Assembly (NCBI GenBank): GCA_947643405.1
Contig: CANRVY010000005.1
Span: 103-64,102, forward strand
Direction of reading: 5' to 3'
Length of the DNA stretch: 64,000 bases
Origin: an uncultured Mycoplasmatota bacterium
GTDB taxonomy: Bacteria; Bacillota_I; Bacilli_A; RF39; UBA660
Made by a program: the position numbers and the translations under genes. The first letter of the stretch is position 1, and each line of letters opens with the position of its first letter. The notes below the pieces were generated by a model. The model saw only the letters and a list, made by a program, of their open reading frames with translations, was not told the origin of the DNA and did not search any database. Shown here piece by piece: positions 1 to 12,300 of this stretch.

Positions 1-2253
1 TTGGTGTTGTTGTATCTATCTTACTTACTGTTACACTCTTTGATGCTGATACTCTTCCTACTCCATCTTTCGCCCATAAATAATATGTTCCATTTGCTGT
101 TATTGTTTTACTAAATGCATAACTTGTCGTTGTTGTTCCTACACTTGTCCATCCTGAAGCATTTGCTGCTGGTTTTGTACTACTTGTTGTCCACATATAA
201 TGCGTTACTCCACTATGAGCATCTGTTATTGTACTTGTCAATGTCGCATTCTTTGCCCATGCTGTTGGATTTCCACCTATCGCTCCTACCACTGGTACTG
301 TCGCATCTACTTGATATGTTCCACTACTTTCTTTCTTCGTATTATTATAGGATCCTGTTCCTGTTGCTTCTATCGTATATGTTCCTGTTGTATTTAATGT
401 AATACTTGCTGTTCCTGTATTATTACTGATTGTTCCATTTCCTGTTGTTCCATTACTTATCTTATAACTTAATGCTGTTAAGTTCTCTCCTATCTTTAAT
501 GTCGCACTGATTGTTACATTCACTGATTTTACCCATCCATTTGTCTTTATTGGCGTAAAACTTATGATTGGACTATCTGCTGCTATTACTGTAAATGTTC
601 TTGTCTTTGTTCCAATATTTCCTGCTTCATCTGTTGCTTTATATGTTATTGTTTGTGTTCCTATTACTGCACTTAATCCTCCTGTATATGTTATTGTTGG
701 TGTCACTCCACTATTATCTGTTGCTGTTACTCCTGTCATTAAATTATATCCTGCTACTTCATCTACTTTTAACGTTACATTTTCAAATACAAGTTCTGGT
801 TTAGTGGTATCTATCTTATATGTTCCACTTGTCTTTATTGTACTATTATCTGAGTTATCTATCGCTGTTATTTCTATCTCGTAATTTCCTGTACTATTTA
901 ATGAAATACTTCCTCCATTATCAATCGTTGTACTTTCTCCTCTTACTCCATCTTTGATAATGACATAACTGATTCTTTCTACTTTGATATTATCTGTTGC
1001 TGTTACTTTTACACTTTGTGATTGAACAAATTTTGTTGTTTCTTCTGGTGTTATTACTATCTCTGGTTTTGTTAAATCTTTTACAATTATTCTTCTTGTT
1101 TTTGTACTTTCATTTCCTAATCTATCCGCTACTTTATATGTAATTCTATATTCTCCTGGGATTGATAATAACTCTCCTTCTATTATTATCTCACTATTCT
1201 CTATTGTTCCATCTATATTATCTGTTACACTTACTCCTGTTAATAAATCGTATCCTAATGCTTCATTACTTTCTAATTCTACTGTTTCTGGATTTAATAC
1301 AATCTCTGGTCCTGTTCTATCGATTCTGTATGTTTTATTTACTGTATTTGTATGTCCATTATTATCTGTTGCTGTTACTTTTATCTCATAGATTCCTGTT
1401 TCATTTAATGTTATTATTTTACTATTTCCTGTTATCTTGATAATTTCTCCATCATTTATTTGATAACTAAACTCACTTACTTTATTTGGTTTTATTCCTG
1501 ATACTGTTATTAATATCTCTTGTTCTTTTACATAATTACTATTTGGTTCTGTCATAGTAATTACTGGTTTCATATCTAATACTGCTACTGTTCTTGTTAC
1601 TTCTGCTACCTTTCCATCATTCTCTGCTCTATATATTACTTCATATCTATTTTCTCTACTTGTATCTATATATTCTACTGTTTCATTATTTGATCTAATT
1701 TCTGTTGTATATTCTAGTTTTTCTCCTAGTTTAGTTCTAGCTGTTGCTCCTAATTCTGTATATGGTTCATTGATTCCTACATATATAATAGAATCTCCAT
1801 TTAGTTTAATCATTGGATCTGTTTTACTATGATTTGGAATTTCCCCTCCTGGATTTGGAGTGATTTCTATATCATTCTCAGGTCCATTCGCACAATATTC
1901 TTTATTACAAATATTATCTATATGAATTTTTCCTTGTTCATCTACATAGATAAATCCATTTCCTTCTATTTTTCCATGAATCTTAATTTTTTGATCTTTT
2001 GTTTTTTCTGCTACTGTAAGAAGCGTCAAATCTTTTTTCTCGTAAAAATATTCTCTGGGCGCATAAAAATTATCATTGCTATGGTCAATTCTTACACTTT
2101 CTATTAGCCCATCGATACTTCTTTCAAACGTTGATTTCCCGCTTTTTTTAATTGATTTTATTACAATCGGTGACACGATCAAAGCGATTACTCCTATTAT
2201 TATTAAAACTGCCAAAAGTTCAATCAAAGTAAATCCTTTTTTTGATTGCATAA
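1..2253 (-). CDS. Modular type IV pilin-like protein. Class III prepilin leader MQSKKG/FTLIELLAVLIIIGVIA (cleavage after Gly, Phe+1, Glu+5), followed by at least 6 Ig-like repeat modules with a recurring TATDN/VTDN motif. C-terminus lies beyond the window edge.
   Basis: Manual reverse-strand translation from the ATG at 2251-2253 gives a continuous ORF to position 1. RBS GGAGTG 7 nt upstream. N-terminal methylation motif G/FTLIE. About 90-aa repeats with TxTATDNxG motifs. Confidence 0.7.
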
Positions 2254-2386
2254 TATTCACTCCGTTTCTCTTTTATTCTAAGAATTATTATAGCCTAATT
2301 TATTTTCTATATTCATTTTTGTGCTCATTTGGTTTCATTAATTCTCTGATCAAAAATCCTTTTTTTATCAAAAAAAATTAAAGTTT

Positions 2387-4039
2387 TTATACTTTAATTT
2401 TCTGAAAAGATGGCTCACTTTCTTTATAAGAAGTCAATAATTCTATCCTTGAATTGGCAACACTTCTATCAAATCCTGTTTGATAACGATTTTTTAATTT
2501 TTCAATATTTCTCCACAAAATTTGTTCCATTGAAACTCCTAATTCTATAGAGGAGATTCTAGATAAAGAAACCAATAAATTACTACTCATTTCTAATACT
2601 CTTTCTTTTTCACTTGCATAAATAATTTCGCAAGCGTAGCGGACTAAGCTTTTCCACTCATCTTCAAAAGAATACCCCCCTTTATTTAAATGGTCTAAAT
2701 ATGTGATTGGAATACCATTGTCAGAATATCCTTTTAAACATTCTGGATCTTTTCTTTTGACACTTTTTATCAATGCTTCATCTGTTATTGTTTCTAGCTT
2801 TTGCTTTCTCTCACCAAATAAATACATCCCAATATCTTCAAATTCAAATTGATAAAAACTGGATAGAGAAGCCGCTAAATACCATACAATATCGCCGATT
2901 TCTACTTGTAGATTTTGAAGGAGTTTTTGCTTACTTGTCTCATCTAAATTATGCGTTTTATATTTCTTAAAAGAATCAATTAATTCTCCTACCTCTCCTA
3001 TGATTCCCATTTCTCCATTCATTTTTTTTACAGAATCACTTGCAAAATGATTCATAGTTCTTTTCGCAAGTTCCCCATAATGCTTAAATGTAAGATTACT
3101 TTGTTCCATAAAGTCAACCATTTTTTGTCCCAAACATCCACCTTTGCAAATATCAAAATTAGAACAAGACATACATTCTCCATTTACACAAGTTTTAAAA
3201 TTACGGACATTGTTAAAATATTCTGAATCATAAATTTCTGCTAATGTATGTTCATAAATATTTCCTCCAAATCCTAAATAATCAAAATATTTCATAGCAT
3301 CACATGGATATACTCTTCCATCAAATCCTACTATCATCGTTTGTTCAGCAGCACTACAAGGAGTATGACTAATTCCTAGAAAATTCCAAGGACTTCCAAG
3401 CCTAATTTTTTCTCCGTATTTTTTTCTTAATTCTATGATTTTTTCTTTAAACCACAACAGCTCTTCTCTTGATAAAAGCAAATCTCTTGTTCCTCTTCCA
3501 TGTGGTACAAATCTTAAAAAAGATAAATTGGTAATTTGATTAGAAGACAATCCGAAAAATAATTTGGAGACATCATCAATATCGTGAACAGTTTCTGTTG
3601 TTATTGCATGATGAAAACCTAGCCTAATTCTTGCTTGCTTCAATAATTCAGGAAAAAAATCTTGAAGTCTTTCTAATGTTACAATATTATCTCTTGTCAA
3701 ATGATAAGTTGTTGAATATATCATTTCATCTAGTCCATATAAGACTAAATTTTTAATTTTGTTGATACTTTCTTGTTCTGGATTACACATAGTATAAAGT
3801 TTCGTTTTTAATCCATTTCTATGTGCTTCCGCAATTACTTCTTCAATATCTGGATATAAAGTTGCCTCTCCTCCAGTAAATACAATACTAGAAGCTTTTA
3901 ATAAGACCGCTTCATGAATCACTCTCTTTACAAGTTCTTTATCCAAATATTGGAAGTTAACCTCTTTTGCTTCACTTGAACAATGTGAACACCATCTTTT
4001 GCATTCTTCTGTCACTTCAATCTTTACTTCTTTTATCAT
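2387..4039 (-). CDS. Radical SAM enzyme with SPASM/twitch Cys-rich domain fused to a C-terminal tandem MazG-like NTP pyrophosphohydrolase-like region
   Basis: CX3CX2C (CKRWCSHC) near the N-terminus and a GGEATL SAM-binding motif. CX2CX5CX3C (CMSCSNFDICKGGC) SPASM-like motif. C-terminal EVGELIDSF...EIGDIVWYL and EQILWRNIEKLKNRY resemble MazG EExxE and KL.xR motifs. Confidence 0.6.
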   Translation of the reverse strand: MIKEVKIEVTEECKRWCSHCSSEAKEVNFQYLDKELVKRVIHEAVLLKASSIVFTGGEATLYPDIEEVIAEAHRNGLKTKLYTMCNPEQESINKIKNLVLYGLDEMIYSTTYHLTRDNIVTLERLQDFFPELLKQARIRLGFHHAITTETVHDIDDVSKLFFGLSSNQITNLSFLRFVPHGRGTRDLLLSREELLWFKEKIIELRKKYGEKIRLGSPWNFLGISHTPCSAAEQTMIVGFDGRVYPCDAMKYFDYLGFGGNIYEHTLAEIYDSEYFNNVRNFKTCVNGECMSCSNFDICKGGCLGQKMVDFMEQSNLTFKHYGELAKRTMNHFASDSVKKMNGEMGIIGEVGELIDSFKKYKTHNLDETSKQKLLQNLQVEIGDIVWYLAASLSSFYQFEFEDIGMYLFGERKQKLETITDEALIKSVKRKDPECLKGYSDNGIPITYLDHLNKGGYSFEDEWKSLVRYACEIIYASEKERVLEMSSNLLVSLSRISSIELGVSMEQILWRNIEKLKNRYQTGFDRSVANSRIELLTSYKESEPSFQKIKV

Positions 4040-4133
4040 ACTATCAAATTCCTTTCAAAATACTATTTATTATCATAGTTAAATATCCTTTATTTGTCAA
4101 GGAAATGTGTTATAATGAAGTGGGTGATAAAGC

Positions 4134-4712
4134 ATGCAAAGTATTAAAAATACAGTCTTAAATACCATAATCATTCAAAAATCAAAATTTATTTGTAAAC
4201 TAGTTTCTGTACAAAATATAGAAGAAATAAAACAAGAATTAGAACAGGTAAAAAAAGAATATCAAAACGCCACACATTACTGTTATGCTTATATTTGTAA
4301 CAATCATATTCATGCATCAGATAATGGAGAACCAAATGGAACTGCTGGTATGCCCATATTAAATGTACTTCAAAAACAAAATTTGAATTACATTCTTGCT
4401 ATTGTTATTCGCTATTTTGGCGGCATTAAATTAGGAGCTGGCGGTTTAGTACGTGCTTATTCTAATGCTACAGTAGAAGCATTAAAAAAAGCAACTTTTA
4501 TCAATTTTGTTCCAGGAAAGATTATCACTTGTACATTTTCTTATCAAGAAGAAAAACAAATGGAGCATTTATTATCTAATACCCAAATTATAGAAAAAAA
4601 ATATCAAGAACAAATTATGTATAAAGTAAAAATATCAAATGAAGAATTTGAAAAAATGAAAAATCAACTTCTGCATTTTCATATTGAAGAAGATATATTA
4701 ATTGCTAAATAA
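4134..4712 (+). CDS. yigZ: IMPACT/YigZ family protein (UPF0029)
   Basis: IxKSKF...HYCYAY...SDNGEPNGTAG.PIL.VL...RYFGGIKLGAGGLVRAY motif pattern typical of YigZ/IMPACT N-domain. Extended -10 (TGtTATAAT) just upstream. Confidence 0.75.
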   Translation: MQSIKNTVLNTIIIQKSKFICKLVSVQNIEEIKQELEQVKKEYQNATHYCYAYICNNHIHASDNGEPNGTAGMPILNVLQKQNLNYILAIVIRYFGGIKLGAGGLVRAYSNATVEALKKATFINFVPGKIITCTFSYQEEKQMEHLLSNTQIIEKKYQEQIMYKVKISNEEFEKMKNQLLHFHIEEDILIAK

Positions 4713-4783
4713 ATAACTTCGATTTGCAAAGTAAAATAAGCATTATTATTGACAAAAAAAAAGCACTATAGTACAATGTATAT

Positions 4784-4900
4784 AGATGAGGGAAACTTCA
4801 TATCATAAAAAGAGATACATTCTAATATTCCCATGTTAGGTGTTTACTCTAAATTTTGTTTTGAGAAAACACCAATTCAAAGCTGAGTTGGTGTTTTCTT
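4784..4900 (+). ncRNA. Candidate small RNA (copy A) of the repeated module. TTGACA-17-TACAAT promoter at 4749-4777, 5-prime hairpin, terminator hairpin AAAACACCAAUUCA-AAGC-UGAGUUGGUGUUUU plus U-tract. Convergent with and 3-prime-overlapping the small peptide ORF 4906..4974.
   Basis: Consensus promoter. Conserved in 4 copies in the window with compensatory changes in the 5-prime hairpin (ATGAGG-tttt-CCTCAT, ATGAGG-gaaa-CTTCAT, ATGAAGG-aaa-CCTCAT). Strong intrinsic terminator. Confidence 0.45.
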
Positions 4901-4905
4901 TTAAA

Positions 4906-4974
4906 TTAGTTCTTATTTTTAAGAACAATGATAGTGTAAAACACAATCATTGCAAATGCAACAATTAATTCCAA
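4906..4974 (-). CDS. Small hydrophobic peptide, type I toxin-like: (M/L)ELIVAFAMIVFYTIIVLKNKN, 22 aa, TTG start in this copy
   Basis: Paralogous to ORFs at 30559..30627 and 30946..31014 (MELIVIFITIVFYTVLVLKKKD). Differences between copies are conservative in this frame but non-conservative in the overlapping alternative frame. Single TM segment plus Lys-rich tail. TTGTAA-17-TATAAT promoter near 5087-5115 and GAGGTGA RBS upstream of an overlapping upstream frame. Confidence 0.4.
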   Translation of the reverse strand: MELIVAFAMIVFYTIIVLKNKN

Positions 4975-5192
4975 AAGAATTTATCCTTTCTATATTTCTT
5001 GCAAACATAGAAATCACCTCTTTTCTATCATCCTTTGATGAAGAATCGAGTAAAACACCTAACTACTAGAATAGTACCTCTATATTTATTATACATGGAA
5101 TATCTACATTTTACAATAGTATCTATCAAAATAGCCAAGTTTGTTATCTTCAAAAGATTGACAAAGAAAATATACTATAGTACAATGTATAT

Positions 5193-5300
5193 AGATGAAG
5201 GAAACCTCATATCATAAAAAAAGAGAAACACTCTGATATTTGTGTGTTAGATGTTTACTCTAAACAGTTGCTAAAGAAAAGAGTCTAATAAGACTCTTTT
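5193..5300 (+). ncRNA. Candidate small RNA (copy A-prime). TTGACA-17-TACAAT promoter at 5158-5186. Ends at the bidirectional terminator shared with the 5303..5824 gene. No adjacent peptide ORF.
   Basis: Sequence paralogous to 4749-4860 and 30403-30500. Terminator hairpin 5273-5304. Confidence 0.35.
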
Positions 5301-5304
5301 CTTT
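5273..5304. terminator. Bidirectional intrinsic terminator (AAAGAAAAGAGUCU-AAUA-AGACUCUUUUCUUU)
   Basis: Perfect hairpin flanked by A-run and T-run. Overlaps the stop codon of the 5303..5824 gene. Confidence 0.6.
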
Positions 5305-5824
5305 ATTGTAATTTTAATTTTTTTTCTTTACAAGCTTTTTTTGTTGCTTTATAACAAGCATCATAAGAAGCTTCTGCTTTTCCCATTCTTTCGGAACTAA
5401 TTCCATCTATAACACCATATTGTGAATAATATGGATTTTTGAGTTTTGATTTATCGAATAATTTTGAAAGCATTAGACTTGCTACTCCTACACCAATAAA
5501 AGTAAATTGAATTGGTTTCATATCCGTTCTACCATACCAATAAATAAGTGAAAATATACTAGGAATTAACATACCAACTCCAAAATTTTTAAACATTGTA
5601 ACAGAATTTACTTTTTGTCTTACACTAATACTACAAATTTTATATTCTAAATATCTTTCAACTTCATCATCTGAAAAACCTAATTTATCTTTTAAATAAG
5701 CTTTGTGATTTAATAATGCTACTTCTAAAATTGTTTTGGCATCTCTTGGAATTACAATATCAGATGGTTTTACCTCAATCTTTATTTTTTTCTTATCATA
5801 TGGACTTTTTGCATAAAATTTCAT
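5303..5824 (-). CDS. Hypothetical membrane protein (173 aa, two predicted TM segments in the C-terminal half)
   Basis: ORF with a TM-like segment and no recognisable motif. Confidence 0.5.
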   Translation of the reverse strand: MKFYAKSPYDKKKIKIEVKPSDIVIPRDAKTILEVALLNHKAYLKDKLGFSDDEVERYLEYKICSISVRQKVNSVTMFKNFGVGMLIPSIFSLIYWYGRTDMKPIQFTFIGVGVASLMLSKLFDKSKLKNPYYSQYGVIDGISSERMGKAEASYDACYKATKKACKEKKLKLQ

Positions 5825-5922
5825 AAATATTCCCCCTTTTATGAATTGATTGTTATATTATCATAATTTTAGAAAATCGTCAAATCAAAAAAAGTCTTGA
5901 ATAATTTCAAAACTCTTTTTTA

Positions 5923-7242
5923 TTAATCTTCTAAAGTTTCCTTTAATCTTTTTTCATATTCTGCTTGCAATACATAAATATCTTTACTACTCATAAATAG
6001 TAAAACCGCATTTTTATGCTTCAATAATTTATCGACTGTATCTAAAGAAATATATTCTCCATTATTTAATTTCTCTAAAATAACCTCATAAGTAACATCA
6101 TCATAACCAACTTCTTCACGATCTACTCCAACATCCATAATATAAGATTTATCAGCTAGATTAAGAGCTTCCGCAAACTCTTCTGCAAATTCTTTGGTTC
6201 TAGATAAAGTATGTGTTTTTAAAATGGCTACAATTTCTTTATCTGGATATTTTTGTTTGGCTGCCTTTATGGTTACTTTTACTTCTGTTGGATGATGAGC
6301 GTAATCATCAACTGTTACAATATCACCAATCACATTTTCCTTAAATCTTCTTTTGGCACCACCAAATGTTTTTAAATTTTTAGCAACTTCTTTTGCATCC
6401 ATTCTTTCATAGTAACAAACACCAATAACTGCTAACGCATTTAAAAGCATATGTTTTCCAAAAAGTGGTAAATCAAAATGTCCATAATAATTTCCTTCTA
6501 CAAAGACATCAAATTCAGTTCCATCATTACTGTATTCTACATCTTTCGCTAAAATATCGTTATCCTCTTTTAAACCATAATAGAAAATTGGAGGATTCAC
6601 GTCCAAAGTATGAGTATAGGGATCATCTCCACATGCAATTACCATTTTTTCTGCTTTATTTGCAAAACTTTGATAAGCATCTATAACATCATCAATATCT
6701 TTGTAATAATCAATATGATCTAACTCTATATTTGTAATGATTGCGTATGCTGGATCATAATCTAAAAAATGTCTTTTATATTCACAAGCTTCAAGAGCAA
6801 AATAAGAATTTTCTTTACTTGCTTTTCCTGACCCATCTCCAATTAAATAATTGCAACCAGTAATATTGGATAATACATGTGATAACATTGCTGTTGTCGT
6901 CGTTTTTCCATGGCATCCAGAAATTGCAATTGTTTTAAACATTCCTGTTAATCTTCCAACCATTTCTTGATAAGTATAAATTTTCAAATCTAATTCTTTA
7001 GCTTTTGCTACTTCTGGATTATGGTCATTAAATGCATTCCCTTGTACAATAATCATACCATCTTCTATATTCTTTTCATCAAAAGGAAGAATCCGAATAT
7101 TTTTTTCTAATAATGCGTCTTCTGTAAAAAAATGGTCTGGTTTGTCACTACCCTCTACTTCATATCCTAAATCATGCATAATTTGTGCTAATGCACTCAT
7201 GCCAGTCCCTTTTATTCCTATAAAATGATACATATTTTTCAT
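5923..7242 (-). CDS. murC: UDP-N-acetylmuramate--L-alanine ligase
   Basis: N-terminus HFIGIKGTGMSALAQIM..GYEVEGSD and ISGCHGKTTTTAML P-loop are typical of MurC. Length 439 aa. Confidence 0.9.
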   Translation of the reverse strand: MKNMYHFIGIKGTGMSALAQIMHDLGYEVEGSDKPDHFFTEDALLEKNIRILPFDEKNIEDGMIIVQGNAFNDHNPEVAKAKELDLKIYTYQEMVGRLTGMFKTIAISGCHGKTTTTAMLSHVLSNITGCNYLIGDGSGKASKENSYFALEACEYKRHFLDYDPAYAIITNIELDHIDYYKDIDDVIDAYQSFANKAEKMVIACGDDPYTHTLDVNPPIFYYGLKEDNDILAKDVEYSNDGTEFDVFVEGNYYGHFDLPLFGKHMLLNALAVIGVCYYERMDAKEVAKNLKTFGGAKRRFKENVIGDIVTVDDYAHHPTEVKVTIKAAKQKYPDKEIVAILKTHTLSRTKEFAEEFAEALNLADKSYIMDVGVDREEVGYDDVTYEVILEKLNNGEYISLDTVDKLLKHKNAVLLFMSSKDIYVLQAEYEKRLKETLED

Positions 7243-7265
7243 CTCCTATTACTATTATACTTCAT

Positions 7266-7970
7266 TTATCCCAAAAAATTAAGTAGAAATGGTCCTAAAA
7301 TAAGAATCATAATCAATGGTACCACAAATAATACTGATATTATACTTATTTTATTTGGGATTTTGTTAATTTGTCCTTTGATTTCTAATATTTGTTTATC
7401 TCTTAGAAACGCAATCTGATTATACATTGTATCCAAAATACTATTTCCAAAAATATTCGTTTGTGTAATATTTAAAATAATGTTATTAACAGTTTCTGAC
7501 GGAATTCTTTTTTTCATATCTTCTAATGCTTCTAATAAAGATTTTCCAAAATGAACTTCTAATAATGCTCTTTTAAATTCATCTGATAATTCTGACTTCA
7601 CATTAGCTACTGTAACTTCTAAAGAATTTTCAAGATTTCTTCCAGATTCTAAGGTCAAGGTTAAAATTTCAAAAAAATATAAAGCTTCATGATCAAGTTT
7701 TCGAATGCGCATCTTTAAGGGTTTTGTGATAATCAAATAATAGTATGCATAGTACCAACCAAGTGTAATCGCAGGTGCAAAAATATAAGCATGTTTTGAT
7801 TCATATAATACAACTAAAAATGCAATCAATGAAGAAAGCAATTGAAGATTAATGAATGCTGTTGCATCAAATTTTGATTTTCCACCTAGCATATCTATCT
7901 GCATTTGAATTCTATCTAAATCTTTTTCACGATAAATTTTTCGAATAATATTATTTCTCAAGCCCATCAC
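7266..7970 (-). CDS. Tad/Cpa pilus assembly inner-membrane protein, TadC-like (T2SSF domain)
   Basis: 234 aa with two terminal TM segments and a central soluble domain. Sits in the operon downstream of tadB/tadA homologues. Confidence 0.6.
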   Translation of the reverse strand: MMGLRNNIIRKIYREKDLDRIQMQIDMLGGKSKFDATAFINLQLLSSLIAFLVVLYESKHAYIFAPAITLGWYYAYYYLIITKPLKMRIRKLDHEALYFFEILTLTLESGRNLENSLEVTVANVKSELSDEFKRALLEVHFGKSLLEALEDMKKRIPSETVNNIILNITQTNIFGNSILDTMYNQIAFLRDKQILEIKGQINKIPNKISIISVLFVVPLIMILILGPFLLNFLG

Positions 7971-9490
7971 ATCCTAACCGCCATAATTTTTCTGACACAG
8001 ATAATATAAATAACATATAAAATAACAATAAGAAAAGATAACATAATTCCAAGTGGTGTTGTAAAAAAAGGTAAGAAATAATCTGGATTGATAACACTTA
8101 CAAAAATTGTAAATAAAACAGGAACGCAGAATAATACATACATAATCATTTTAGAACTACTAGTAAGTGACTCTAATTCTAACCATAATTTCTTTTTACT
8201 AAATAATGATTCTTCAATAGAAGAAAATACCTTAATAATATTTCCTCCTGTTTTATTTAAAATACTTAAAGAAGCTGTTAGATAATTCACTTCTTCTAAT
8301 TTAATTCGATCAGCAAATCTACCAAAAACTACATCAACAGAGAGTCCATAAGAAAGTTCTGCACGCATTTTTTTGAATTCTTTTGCAATTGCTCCATCTA
8401 ATTCAGTCATTACGAGTTCAATTGCTTGTGTGATACTTCTTCCAGATTTAAATGCATTATTCATAATAATAATGGCTTGTAATAAATCATTTTCAATATG
8501 TTTTCGGTGCAATTTATGTTTTGAAATATATAAAATATCTGGGACAAAGAAGCCAAATAGAAATGGAAAAACGATTTCATAAGAATTCATAAGTTCTATT
8601 TGTAAAGTAGACGAAATAATTGCAATAACAACAAATAAAATAGCGATTAATATTTTGGCTGATACAAAATCTATTCCTGTTCTATTTTCGTCTCCCATAA
8701 TTCCAACATATTTCTCATATCGATTTGAATATTTTTTTAAAAAAACAGACTTTGAAACATATTTACTGATTCGTTTTAATAGTTTTGCATAGAATTGATA
8801 ATATCGATCAAATAAAGATAACGAATGATCATTTAAAGATTCAATGCTATATTTTCTAATCCTTTGTTCTAACTTTACACTTCTTCTATAAGATAACATT
8901 GCAAAGATAATACCTACTAAGGCGGCTATAATCCCTAACTGAATCAAAATAACTCCAAAAGTATCATCCTTAACAACATTGATCATCATCGCTTTTGTCG
9001 TCGTGTTTCCAGCGCTATCAGTAACTGTATAAACTAATTTTTTTAATCCAATTTCTTCAAAATTTAGTTCTTCTACATTGGTTGTTACTTGTCCTAATAA
9101 ATCCCCATCCTGTGTGTCATAAGCCTTTACATCTGCCATAGGATAAAGAATAGATCCGACTCTCATTTTTAAAGAGTCACTTCCTAATATAATAACTGGA
9201 GCATCTTTATCTATTTTATAAACTCCACTTTCTATTTCTGTTTTTCGATTGTAATAATCATAGGATTCTATTTTGATTTGGTAAGTTCCTGATTCATCTA
9301 ATACAATATTAACTGGTTTTTCTCCATCAATACTTTCACTACTACTTGGAATTCCATTTTTTAAAACTGTATAGGTATACCGCATTACTAAGCTATCAGG
9401 AGTATATGTAATTGTTAAATCTTGATTTGTCGGCTTTTCTTGAGCTTCCAAATTAAAACCAGTTTCTCCCAAATGTGGCACTAGAATCAC
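7967..9490 (-). CDS. TadB-like T2SSF-domain membrane protein with an additional N-terminal Ig-like (DUF5011-like) domain
   Basis: N-terminal roughly 190 aa with a KAYDTQDGDLLGQV motif (Ig-like/DUF5011-type), then TM segments and a T2SSF-like region. Overlaps neighbours by 4 bp (operon). Confidence 0.55.
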   Translation of the reverse strand: MILVPHLGETGFNLEAQEKPTNQDLTITYTPDSLVMRYTYTVLKNGIPSSSESIDGEKPVNIVLDESGTYQIKIESYDYYNRKTEIESGVYKIDKDAPVIILGSDSLKMRVGSILYPMADVKAYDTQDGDLLGQVTTNVEELNFEEIGLKKLVYTVTDSAGNTTTKAMMINVVKDDTFGVILIQLGIIAALVGIIFAMLSYRRSVKLEQRIRKYSIESLNDHSLSLFDRYYQFYAKLLKRISKYVSKSVFLKKYSNRYEKYVGIMGDENRTGIDFVSAKILIAILFVVIAIISSTLQIELMNSYEIVFPFLFGFFVPDILYISKHKLHRKHIENDLLQAIIIMNNAFKSGRSITQAIELVMTELDGAIAKEFKKMRAELSYGLSVDVVFGRFADRIKLEEVNYLTASLSILNKTGGNIIKVFSSIEESLFSKKKLWLELESLTSSSKMIMYVLFCVPVLFTIFVSVINPDYFLPFFTTPLGIMLSFLIVILYVIYIICVRKIMAVRM

Positions 9491-10822
9491 CTACTTTCTA
9501 TCAAATATATCCATAAGAGTATTAATTCCTCTTGATTTTATTGTTTTATAAACATTTGGAATACGATCATGTAAAATGAACTCCCCTAATACGTCTCCAT
9601 TTTCTTTCACACCATCTTGTCTAAAAGTAAAAATCTCTTCCATTTTAATTGCATTATCCTCTATTCCAGTTATTTCACAAATGCTTGTTACTTTTCTTCT
9701 TCCATCTGTTAATCTGGATACTTGAACAACAATATTAATAGCTCCTTCAATATATTCACGAATAGCTCTAATTGGAATTTCCATACCAGCCATCAATACC
9801 ATAGTTTCTAAACGATTTAATGCATCAAGTGGACTATTGGCATGCATTGTTGTTAAAGACCCGTTATGCCCAGTATTCATTGCTTGTAACATATCAAAAG
9901 CCTCTTTCCCACGAACTTCTCCAACAATAATACGGTCTGGTCTCATACGAAGAGAGTTAATTACCAAATCTCGAATTGTAATAGCTCCTTCCCCTTCATA
10001 ATTGGTTAATCTTGTTTCTAGTGAGATAACATGCTCTTGTTCCAATCTAAGTTCAGCCGCATCCTCAATTGTAATAATTCTCTCATTTGGAGAAATAAAA
10101 GAAGATAATACATTTAAAAGAGTTGTTTTTCCACTTCCTGTTCCACCACAAATAATAATGTTTAGTTTTGCTTCTACGCATGCTTCTAAAAATCTAGCCA
10201 TATATGGAGTAAGTGCTCCTGTTCTTAAAAAGTCCTCAATGTTTGCTAATTCTTCTTTAAATTTACGAATTGTTAAAACTGGCCCATTTAAGGAAAGAGG
10301 CGGAATAACCGCATTTAGTCTAGAACCATCTACAAGCCTTGCATCGACCATTGGATTTGCTGTATCAATTGTTCTTCCAAGTGGTTGAATCATCCTTTGA
10401 ATCGTCCTTAAAATATGATCTTCATTGATGAAAGAAATACTGTTGTCTCTTACAACACGACCTTCCAATTCAATATAAATTTCGTCTTTTCCATTTACCA
10501 TAATTTCTGTAATATCACGGTCTTCCAATAACTCTGTTAATGGCCCATTTCCACTGATTTCATTATCAATCAAGTTATATAAGTAACTTCTTTCAACATT
10601 TGATAAATCATATCCATCTATGGTTTTATCAATTTCTGTTTTCACAAAATCAGTCATATCTCTTGCTTTGGTAATATTATTATCAATTAAATTTTGAATG
10701 ATTTTAGTACGAAGTTCATCTAACAATATTTTATTAGGAAATGCTTCATAATCTGAAACATAAGCAACTTCTGGAGTTTCTATTTGAACGTCAAATTCTT
10801 CAACAAATTTTTTCTTTGCCAT
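9491..10822 (-). CDS. tadA: Tad/Cpa pilus secretion ATPase (CpaF/TadA family, type II/IV secretion NTPase)
   Basis: Walker A IICGGTGSGKTTLLN, a His-box region, and length 443 aa typical of CpaF/TadA. Confidence 0.85.
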   Translation of the reverse strand: MAKKKFVEEFDVQIETPEVAYVSDYEAFPNKILLDELRTKIIQNLIDNNITKARDMTDFVKTEIDKTIDGYDLSNVERSYLYNLIDNEISGNGPLTELLEDRDITEIMVNGKDEIYIELEGRVVRDNSISFINEDHILRTIQRMIQPLGRTIDTANPMVDARLVDGSRLNAVIPPLSLNGPVLTIRKFKEELANIEDFLRTGALTPYMARFLEACVEAKLNIIICGGTGSGKTTLLNVLSSFISPNERIITIEDAAELRLEQEHVISLETRLTNYEGEGAITIRDLVINSLRMRPDRIIVGEVRGKEAFDMLQAMNTGHNGSLTTMHANSPLDALNRLETMVLMAGMEIPIRAIREYIEGAINIVVQVSRLTDGRRKVTSICEITGIEDNAIKMEEIFTFRQDGVKENGDVLGEFILHDRIPNVYKTIKSRGINTLMDIFDRK

Positions 10823-10831
10823 AAATTCCTC

Positions 10832-11593
10832 CTATTTTTTATCTTTCATTAAGGATTCTGCTATATTTTTAAAACTATCCATTGTTTTCTTATATTTAGA
10901 AGCAATGCCTTTTTGGAGTGTTAAAATATTGCCTTCTAATATATATTTGTCTATATTTTTTAAATAAAAGTTTTTTGGAATTACATAATCAATGTTCTCT
11001 TTTAAAATATTTCTCACATCATATTTTGAGAACGGTTCTTTTCCTGGATGAGTGGATTCATTCAAAATGATTTTGTAATTATCTTGTTCCATATCTTTAT
11101 GAATGGCAATTCTAGTTGCCATGTTTTTTAAGTTAGATGGATCATTGTTGATGACATACAATACTTGATCACTTGCATCTAAAGCTACTAAGGTAATATC
11201 ATTTAAAAAATGGTTGGTATCTATTAAAATAACATCATACCTGTAAATTACTTTTGATAGTACAACCGAAATGTATTTACTCCCTATTTTACTTGCATTT
11301 CTAGGATCTTTTGGAGAAGGAATTACATCAATGTAGTCGTTATATTTTACTAAATATCTGTCGATAATTTCAAAACGATTGCTGTTTAGATCATCTACTA
11401 ACCTATAAATATCTTGTTCATTTGGAATGTTTAAAGAAAGAGCAATTGCTCCACCATATAAGTCTAAATCAATAATTAATACTTTCTTTTTTTGAAGGCT
11501 AAAAATACCTGCTAGATTTAAAAGTGTTGTTGTTTTTCCTGTTCCACCTTTTACAGAAGCAACTGTAAATATTTTTGCTTTTTCTAATGCCAT
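10832..11593 (-). CDS. TadZ/CpaE-like MinD/ParA-family P-loop ATPase
   Basis: Deviant Walker A VKGGTGKTTTLLNLAG near the N-terminus. Position immediately upstream of tadA. Confidence 0.7.
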   Translation of the reverse strand: MALEKAKIFTVASVKGGTGKTTTLLNLAGIFSLQKKKVLIIDLDLYGGAIALSLNIPNEQDIYRLVDDLNSNRFEIIDRYLVKYNDYIDVIPSPKDPRNASKIGSKYISVVLSKVIYRYDVILIDTNHFLNDITLVALDASDQVLYVINNDPSNLKNMATRIAIHKDMEQDNYKIILNESTHPGKEPFSKYDVRNILKENIDYVIPKNFYLKNIDKYILEGNILTLQKGIASKYKKTMDSFKNIAESLMKDKK

Positions 11594-11594
11594 A

Positions 11595-11972
11595 TTATCC
11601 CTCTTTCTTAATTCTTTTCTCTCCGTTTATAACTTCTCCTTGATATGATAATTTTAAAATCTGATTTTTAGGTAGAAAAATGGTATCTATTCGTTTTTCT
11701 ACCCTTACATAAACTTTATCATCTTTAATTTCAATTCTAAGTTCATAAATATCTTTGATATTTTCCTTTAATAGATTCGTCATATTAATCTTTAAAACGG
11801 TTTCTTCTTCATTTATATGGTCGAGTGCATAACCAATAGAATCTGCAATGGCATGTTCCATTTTTCTTTTTTCGTTATAAGCAAGTCCTAAATCTACAAT
11901 TAAGCCAACCAATAACAGTAAAAATGGCAATAAGATTAAAAACAGCACAAGGACTTGTCCTTTTTTATTCAT
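11595..11972 (-). CDS. TadE/TadG-like pseudopilin (Flp-type prepilin leader, MNKKG/QVLVLF)
   Basis: Short charged leader ending in Gly followed by a hydrophobic helix. 125 aa. Confidence 0.55.
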   Translation of the reverse strand: MNKKGQVLVLFLILLPFLLLLVGLIVDLGLAYNEKRKMEHAIADSIGYALDHINEEETVLKINMTNLLKENIKDIYELRIEIKDDKVYVRVEKRIDTIFLPKNQILKLSYQGEVINGEKRIKKEG

Positions 11973-12300
11973 TTGATATCACCCTGCTCGCCTTGATTTG
12001 ATAGCTCTTCCCTAAGATCCGATTAAGTCCTGGTGTATTCACTACTACTTTTTTTGACAAGGTGATCGTAGTTGTTGTACTTTTGGTTTCTATATTTTTT
12101 GTCAATTCTTTCTGTTTTACATAGTAATCTACTTCAGTCATTTTATTCTGTCTTACTAATTCAACTACATAATCTAAGTCATTTTCTAATGTATACTCTT
12201 TATAAAGAATATTTCCAAAGTCTATTGCTCCTAATATTAATAGCAATAAAACTGGTAATATTATAATAAATTCGACTAATGCTTGCCCTTTATTCTTCAT
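11965..12300 (-). CDS. TadE-like pseudopilin / Flp-type pilin-like protein (MKNKG/QALVEF, Glu+5 and aromatic +6)
   Basis: G/XXXXE(F/Y) Flp/TadE-type processing motif, hydrophobic N-terminal helix, 111 aa. First gene of the tad operon. Confidence 0.55.
   Translation of the reverse strand: MKNKGQALVEFIIILPVLLLLILGAIDFGNILYKEYTLENDLDYVVELVRQNKMTEVDYYVKQKELTKNIETKSTTTTITLSKKVVVNTPGLNRILGKSYQIKASRVISNE

Follow-up and report, generated by a model that had tools for sequence, protein, structure and literature searches.

The window analysed here is a stretch of 64,000 nucleotides (nt) from an uncultured Mycoplasmatota bacterium (assembly GCA_947643405.1, contig CANRVY010000005.1), and the gene under study is a minus-strand open reading frame (ORF) of 550 amino acids (aa; 2387..4039) that encodes a radical S-adenosylmethionine (SAM) enzyme with a SPASM domain and a split MazG domain. 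The radical-SAM core (aa 1-225; 3365..4039, on the minus strand like all further parts of the protein) includes the CX3CX2C motif of the SAM-binding cluster, C13, C17 and C20 (CKRWCSHC; 3980..4003), as well as the invariant G56-G57-E58 and H180-G-R-G, and it is followed by the SPASM domain (aa 226-310; 3110..3364), whose cysteines are spaced C228-x12-G241-x4-C246 and C289-x2-C292-x5-C298-x3-C302, all of them invariant. The C-terminal region begins with the N-terminal part of the MazG domain, helices 1-3 (aa 315-400; 2840..3097), which carries the motifs TxxxYxxxAxRT, GE349xGE352xxDxxKKxxTH and E380xGD383xxWY. It continues with a segment that contains an invariant D431-P432-x-C434 (aa 417-436; 2732..2791), whose cysteine is the putative displaced seventh cysteine of SPASM, with a weakly conserved helical hairpin inserted in the MazG domain (aa 441-500; 2540..2719), and with the last MazG helix (aa 501-535; 2435..2539; N511-I-E-K-L515-x-x-R518-Y519-x-x-G522-F...R531).

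Radical-SAM, SPASM and MazG modules

Pfam Radical_SAM (PF04055) matched aa 7-98 with 35.8 bits against a curated cut-off of 29.5, Pfam SPASM (PF13186) matched aa 228-292 with 35.5 bits against 21.5, and Pfam MazG matched aa 346-402 with 25.2 bits against 22; the generic SPASM-domain model TIGR04085 (43.1 bits against 27) was the sole NCBIfam model whose cut-off was passed. Foldseek comparisons with radical-SAM/SPASM structures gave E-values of 1e-12 to 1e-9 over about 320-350 residues, at 15-21% identity. The invariance of C13, C17, C20 and G56-G57-E58 in 40 of 40 homologues, the PF04055 score and the fold match place the protein in the radical SAM superfamily. Six invariant SPASM cysteines, two models above their cut-offs and a seventh cysteine, C434 by alignment, give it the SPASM subfamily pattern, from which the binding of two auxiliary [4Fe-4S] clusters is predicted. 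No NCBIfam equivalog was reached: the best was PqqE, for which the score was 60 bits and the cut-off 381, and all equivalogs for maturases of peptides, including ribosomally made peptides with post-translational modifications (RiPPs), scored at most 60 bits against cut-offs of 265-725. An N-terminal extension resembling a RiPP recognition element (RRE) was not detected, and the core, whose first residue is 7, leaves no space for one. Assignment to a known family was rejected, the best NCBIfam, PADLOC and PHROGs matches being generic, and the source annotations of homologues read merely 'radical SAM protein' or 'SPASM domain-containing protein'. The original prediction, made from the letters of the stretch, had proposed the CX3CX2C core, the CX2CX5CX3C SPASM motif (C289, C292, C298 and C302) and a MazG-like C-terminus; the three Pfam models that it had suggested as a check all scored above their cut-offs. 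Its impression that the combination was undescribed also held, since no equivalog was reached and full-text literature searches found no earlier description of either the fusion or the sister cassette described below. Nor did the protein reach the anSME models TIGR03942 and NF010321, whose cut-offs are 349 and 441 bits and against which it scored about 36.

The C-terminal region contains one set of metal ligands (E349, E352, E380 and D383) and one NIEKLxxRY helix, and thus presents the ExxE...ExxD ligands and basic C-terminal helix that, on a four-helix core, define the MazG superfamily of all-alpha nucleoside triphosphate pyrophosphohydrolases. A search of 1.84 billion representative proteins with a profile of this region (A2) recovered first the fused family and then thousands of stand-alone MazG proteins (110-220 aa, 80-95 bits), mostly matched in two stretches. 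All motifs are contiguous in one stand-alone MazG protein of 115 aa, P0257 (TxxxYQxxAxxT, GxxGExGExxDxxKK..H, ExGDxxWY and NIEKLxxRYPxGF..NR), and profile positions 6-80 are covered by its residues 4-77, positions 188-222 by its residues 79-113. Because this protein aligns to both flanks, about 105 extra residues lie between MazG helix 3 and the last helix, and the C-terminal region is, on these alignments, one MazG domain with an insert of that length. The assignment to MazG in the original prediction therefore stood, but its tandem with two signatures did not: a tandem of the E. coli MazG type (TIGR00444) was rejected because there is one motif set and a single-domain MazG aligns on both sides of the insert. 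A genuine tandem MazG, P0252, matched the profile in four stretches.

None of the NCBIfam MazG models was reached by this region, NF052436 (YabN) being listed among the models compared. Its best sequence match in the PDB was B. subtilis YpjD, with DCTPP1/RS21-C6 weaker, and its PHROGs match was 'MazG-like pyrophosphatase' (60 bits). Phage MazG proteins aligned over aa 314-533, for example that of Bacillus phage PBC1, which there adjoins thymidylate synthase. The hairpin at aa 441-500, to which the module owes a likeness to dimeric dUTPases, occurs in 'long' stand-alone MazG proteins too. Such long modules, 50-59% identical to that of the fused family, occur alone (P0391-P0405, 217-236 aa) and fused to a GNAT acetyltransferase (P0245 and P0385-P0390, 365-374 aa), with L053 and L054 as the loci collected for these relatives. 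One GNAT-MazG protein (P0389) coexists with a radical-SAM fusion (P0030) in a single assembly (GCA_011262095.1). At L054, an uncharacterised cluster about 0.9-6 kb downstream of the GNAT-MazG gene (L054:7975-13113) holds a fragment of an S-AdoMet synthetase N-domain, two Radical_SAM genes (one fused to CoaE), a DUF3419 gene and an ATP-grasp gene. A stand-alone copy of the fused-type MazG module beside an unfused radical-SAM gene was not seen in the three loci examined.

The segment with the DPxC motif was traced through relatives that carry only one of the two modules. Unfused relatives of 334 aa end in ...GCLGQKIIANY..VLRKCINSRDPKCMR, and their RDPKC aligns with D431-P432-x-C434 of the fused protein; three rare truncated variants, P0106, P0107 and P0110 (344-373 aa), retain ...YCAKQSDPNC directly after the SPASM domain. 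The segment is missing from long MazG relatives that have no radical-SAM part, as the alignment gaps show: positions 108-137 of the profile have no counterpart in the stand-alone P0401 (221 aa), and positions 100-127 have none in the GNAT-MazG protein P0245. Its retention in unfused and truncated radical-SAM relatives, and its absence from MazG-only relatives, assign the DPxC segment to the SPASM unit. Together with C228, C246, C289, C292, C298 and C302, C434 makes up the classic seven-cysteine SPASM pattern, and it is probably the last ligand of an auxiliary cluster. MazG helices 1-3 would then be inserted between CX2CX5CX3C and C434, with the remainder of MazG after C434; SPASM and MazG would be interdigitated, and a ligand of an auxiliary cluster would lie within a loop of the pyrophosphatase. 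The INTERDIGITATED architecture is the most unusual feature of the fused protein.

Homologues, genomic context and the unfused sister clade

A homologue search over 5.8 billion proteins yielded about 104 full-length clusters that cover at least 95% of the query at 37-99% identity, and after these came proteins of about 334 aa with the radical-SAM and SPASM parts only. With some 104 homologues keeping the architecture, the fusion is real and is neither a chance product nor an assembly artefact. When each GTDB species was scanned through one genome, 33 species carried the full-length fusion, and all of these are metagenome-assembled genomes (MAGs) of uncultured Bacilli, 'Tenericutes' or 'Firmicutes', and the MAG record titles that name a source refer to animal gut (mouse and rabbit bins). 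The fused architecture was absent from 50,697 phage records, from 72,556 plasmid records and from IMG/VR, where the unfused gene was absent as well, and a phage or plasmid origin was rejected on these grounds.

In an alignment of 40 family members (A1), the invariant residues of the core and SPASM domain were C13, C17, H19, C20, G56-G57-E58, C228, C246, C289, C292, C298 and C302, and those of the C-terminal region were N341, G345, G348, E349, G351, D355, K358, H363, G382, D383, W386, Y387, D431, P432, C434, N511, L515 and G522. Mean pairwise identity was 0.47 in the radical-SAM core, 0.62 in SPASM, 0.50 in the first MazG part, 0.46 in the last helix and 0.26-0.29 in the region between the two MazG parts. 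The identity of the MazG parts is close to that of the radical-SAM core, and both catalytic modules are therefore under comparable constraint. Two metagenomic homologues depart from the common layout: P0099 (650 aa) has an extra insert of about 100 aa in MazG, between helix 2 and the ExGD motif, and P0057 (388 aa), in which a PD-(D/E)XK transposase N-terminus is joined to the SPASM part, is probably a disrupted copy.

The gene downstream of the fused gene in the window, outside the unit, is truncated by the window edge (1..2253, minus strand) and is co-oriented at a distance of 133 nt, as originally described. Its product has the N-terminus MQSKKGFTLIELL (= MQSKKGFTLIELLAVL) and matches N_methyl, the N-terminal methylation motif, and several immunoglobulin (Ig)-like domains, and it is therefore called a pilin-like protein. 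No terminator-like site was detected between the two genes. On the other side, a promoter-like site, TTGACA-17-TATGAT (4072..4100, minus strand; 11 of 12 matches, a consensus match only), lies 33 nt 5' of the start codon, and a YigZ/IMPACT (UPF0029) gene (4134..4712, plus strand) is divergent.

Thirty-nine loci with the fused gene were collected, and their ORFs were called and clustered. The pilin-like gene was found downstream in only five of them, namely in the window and in relatives with at least 76% identity, and was absent at L003, L005-L007 and others, so that the neighbourhood check suggested in the original prediction did not favour a link to the pilin. YigZ was the divergent neighbour in 15 of the 39 loci, all within a clade at 53% identity or more, part of which keeps rpsB-tsf-x-yigZ<>gene-beta-lactamase-uvrC as a syntenic block. 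Around homologues at 37-63% identity the neighbours are unrelated housekeeping genes, and at 37-50% identity they are wholly different, among them purA, a methyltransferase, a PEP-utilising enzyme, yidD, pgsA, thioredoxin, rdgB/Ham1, a tadA-like deaminase and tRNA arrays; further housekeeping neighbours of the fused gene are rpsB-tsf, uvrC, murB/G/C and rnc-smc, and synteny tracks protein divergence. No partner gene is conserved across the 39 loci, and no small ORF resembling a precursor peptide (18-110 aa, within 600 nt, clustered) was common to distant loci; a hidden precursor peptide was rejected, the shared small ORFs being frames that overlap known neighbours in close relatives. A riboswitch or leader that might hint at a ligand was found neither in positions 1-8000 of the window nor in 10 distant loci. 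This context, unlike those of pilin maturases, RiPP clusters and defence islands, is that of a vertically inherited, self-sufficient single-gene function.

Upstream of the fused gene, and on its strand, the window carries murC and a Tad-type pilus locus. The latter (7266-12300, minus strand) comprises two TadE-like genes, a ParA-like ATPase, CpaF/T2SSE and two T2SSF genes, the T2SSF protein encoded at 7967-9490 having a surface Ig-like domain at its N-terminus. The murC gene (5923-7242, minus strand) lies between the pilus locus and the radical-SAM gene. An ORF of 173 aa between murC and the yigZ/radical-SAM pair (5303-5824, minus strand; cluster c20) has no Pfam match and is kept only among the closest relatives, in four loci by the tally of clusters and in five, with the window counted, by the list of individual loci. 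Across positions 1-64000 the guanine-plus-cytosine (GC) content is about 26-33% and GC skew is negative in nearly all 2-kb bins, and the minus strand holds 37 of the 41 ORFs of at least 150 aa between 12 and 64 kb. Such strong gene co-orientation is what one replichore of a low-GC Firmicute would be expected to show.

The closest unfused relatives (P0108-P0120) are 41-46% identical over aa 1-310, have the DPxC tail in common with the fused protein, and carry the CxxxCxHC, HG(R/K)G and PCD motifs that it also carries. Their gene is followed, 2-18 nt later, by one for a protein of 310-317 aa that matches over its full length, with 350 bits, the Pfam domain HMUDK_hel (PF18723), the helical domain of 5-hydroxymethyldeoxyuridine (5-hmdU) DNA kinase. 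A metagenome scan found this pairing in 68 of 68 loci whose sequence ran far enough downstream; identity among these loci is 67-99%, and they therefore represent one cassette lineage (examples are L008:6001-7940, L010:6001-7960 and L056-L135, from human-gut and other metagenomes). The cassette has either integrase, excisionase and relaxase genes beside it or those for resolvase, TnpV and NikA, and may serve as a system of DNA-base modification or of conflict. Outside this cassette, HMUDK_hel is known as a domain of phage enzymes of thymidine hypermodification, which phosphorylate 5-hydroxymethyluracil while it is part of DNA (PMC5889632, PMC8989533). Homology between MazG and HMUDK_hel was rejected (hhalign probability 1%), and the HMUDK_hel profile found no relative by sequence in the PDB. 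Both modules are tied to nucleotides or nucleobases, and one radical-SAM clade thus has two unrelated partner modules of this kind. The HMUDK_hel gene family is abundant (4986 matches), and at L049-L052 (HMUDK_hel protein P0132) the upstream radical-SAM gene is fragmented into short ORFs, which suggests partner decay or frameshifts.

Candidate functions of the fused enzyme

The reading that we prefer, at somewhat less than even confidence, is that the fused gene encodes a stand-alone, vertically inherited bifunctional enzyme that would most likely be directed at nucleotides. The MazG module would bind a (deoxy)nucleoside triphosphate (NTP) and release pyrophosphate, and would either supply a nucleoside monophosphate (NMP) substrate or process the NTP product of the radical reaction. 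The radical-SAM module would generate a 5'-deoxyadenosyl radical that abstracts a hydrogen from the same nucleotide, and two auxiliary clusters would handle the redox step. A precedent for pairing an NTP pyrophosphatase with a base modifier is the dTTPase/dUTPase and dUMP hydroxymethylase of phage thymidine hypermodification (PMC13458397). The original prediction had offered, as its second scenario, a nucleotide-modifying and so possibly defence-related enzyme; the nucleotide part of this is favoured indirectly, by the invariant MazG metal ligands and by the sister clade paired with HMUDK_hel, but the defence part is not borne out for the fused form. A bolder extension, possible but in our estimate doubtful, is that the fused protein and the HMUDK_hel sister cassette form an unrecognised clade of SPASM radical-SAM enzymes with nucleotide or nucleobase rather than peptide substrates. 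The fused form would then have its pyrophosphatase clamped to an auxiliary cluster through the cysteine inside MazG, would couple hydrolysis to radical chemistry, and would make a novel modified nucleotide in this lineage of uncultured gut Bacilli.

Several observations weigh against a nucleotide-directed bifunctional enzyme. Most of the solved radical-SAM structures nearest to the fused protein are of enzymes that mature peptides or proteins (PqqE, SuiB, anSME, SkfB and CteB), and the nucleotide enzymes viperin and MoaA rank lower among the fold matches; for the model of the C-terminal region, Foldseek gave no significant match in the PDB. The MazG domain is mostly or wholly lost in three clusters (P0106, P0107 and P0110), and the radical-SAM part may therefore work without it, and in homologue P0070 two of the four acids of MazG are gone. 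That C434 acts as a cluster ligand is a reading based on alignments, and the relative placement of the domains is uncertain because the full-length AlphaFold model has a predicted template-modelling score (pTM) of 0.63, with a predicted local distance difference test score (pLDDT) of 87.5. The link to the sister clade, finally, is one of analogy only, since HMUDK_hel and MazG are not homologous.

An unlikely alternative, although the most probable of the three rivals, is modification or repair of a base on a polymer (tRNA, rRNA or DNA), with the MazG-like region serving as a flipping or binding module or as a remover of 5'-triphosphates rather than as a hydrolase of free NTPs. The obligate partner of the sister clade, HMUDK_hel, is known as a domain of enzymes whose target is a base in DNA (PMC5889632), and the fused gene is a lone gene in housekeeping contexts, as are many RNA-modification genes. 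The metal- and triphosphate-binding motifs of MazG are nevertheless fully kept, as in hydrolases of free NTPs, Pfam detected no nucleic-acid-binding domain, and MazG is unrelated to HMUDK_hel.

We consider it slightly less probable still that the enzyme is a protein or peptide maturase, as in the first scenario of the original prediction, which would install a thioether or carbon-carbon crosslink or a formylglycine-type oxidation on the pilin or on an unlinked protein and would use MazG as an accessory or docking module. The closest folds and NCBIfam models (PqqE, SuiB, anSME, SkfB, CteB and StsB) are of this kind, the pilin gene is co-oriented at close range with no terminator detected between, and anSME, which also has no RRE, acts on an unlinked protein. 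However, the pilin adjoins the gene in close relatives only and distant neighbours are unrelated, the family scores far under the equivalog cut-offs, and the invariant catalytic residues of MazG would be left without a reason. With no conserved partner, small ORF or riboswitch in distant loci and no RRE-like extension, a role in pilin maturation is therefore not supported.

A conflict or defence enzyme that makes a viperin-like toxic nucleotide analogue, with MazG making the precursor or protecting the host pool, is the least probable of these: MazG-like enzymes are common in phage-host nucleotide conflicts, the core has weak PADLOC pVip matches (39.7 and 34 bits), viperin structures are among the fold matches and the unfused sister cassette is carried on integrative or mobilisable elements, but the fused gene sits amid housekeeping genes with a synteny that tracks protein divergence, it is absent from the phage, plasmid and IMG/VR collections, viperins have no SPASM clusters, and the pVip matches cover only generic core motifs (aa 8-199).

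Taken together, the fused protein combines known kinds of domain, a SPASM radical-SAM enzyme and MazG, in an unusual interleaved layout with a probable non-peptide substrate, and does not amount to a categorically new system. As far as we know, the SPASM radical-SAM enzymes characterised so far are in the main maturases of peptides, proteins or cofactors, and few radical enzymes that act on nucleotides are known, viperin and MoaA being examples. A SPASM enzyme interleaved with a predicted intact NTP pyrophosphatase points to radical chemistry on nucleotides, and the tie of its closest relatives to a DNA-base-modification module points the same way. The placement of a cluster ligand within the partner domain would be an unusual type of fusion and predicts a tight structural, and perhaps redox, coupling of both activities. 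Found only in uncultured gut Bacilli, the family may mark a lineage-specific nucleotide or cofactor pathway, and a single self-contained gene is easily expressed and tested.

Comparison with known systems

The fused protein resembles the SPASM enzymes anSME, PqqE, SuiB, SkfB and CteB in its CX3CX2C core, in the pattern CX9-15GX4C...CX2CX5CX3C...C and in its fold, but differs in being 15-21% identical to them, in scoring far under the cut-offs of the curated models, and in having neither an RRE nor a linked precursor. The last SPASM cysteine of anSME stands roughly 17 residues after CX3C, whereas its presumed counterpart in the fused protein stands 131 residues after it because the MazG helices are inserted between. 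With the MazG enzymes (B. subtilis YpjD, 2gta; integron iMazG, 2q73; DCTPP1/RS21-C6; phage phrog_229) it has in common the ExxE...ExxD ligands, the KK..H motif and the last helix, N-x-x-K-L-x-x-R-Y-P-x-G-F; unlike theirs, its domain is split by about 105 residues, which comprise the SPASM cysteine segment and the helical hairpin, and is embedded in a radical-SAM enzyme. The dimeric all-alpha dUTPases (C. jejuni, 1w2y; staphylococcal phage Dut, 5myd; L. major, 2yay) are 11-15% identical to the fused protein and gave no significant Foldseek match; its motifs are of the MazG type, and the likeness does not imply specificity for dUTP.

The unfused radical-SAM-SPASM and HMUDK_hel cassette of gut Firmicutes is the closest relative of the fused radical-SAM part, but it is uncharacterised, has no MazG and differs in its separate partner of 310 aa and in its carriage on mobile elements. 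Viperin with the pVips and MoaA are radical-SAM enzymes that act on nucleoside triphosphates, and both are among the fold matches. The auxiliary cluster of MoaA binds substrate, a precedent for a possible mode of the fused enzyme; however, neither viperin nor MoaA has a MazG domain, viperin has no auxiliary clusters, and the scores of the fused protein against them are generic. B. subtilis YabN, which joins a SAM-dependent methyltransferase to MazG, is likewise a fusion of a SAM-using enzyme with MazG in Bacilli. In YabN, however, a domain of tetrapyrrole-methylase fold is simply joined N- to C-terminal with MazG, and the protein has neither radical chemistry nor iron-sulfur clusters.

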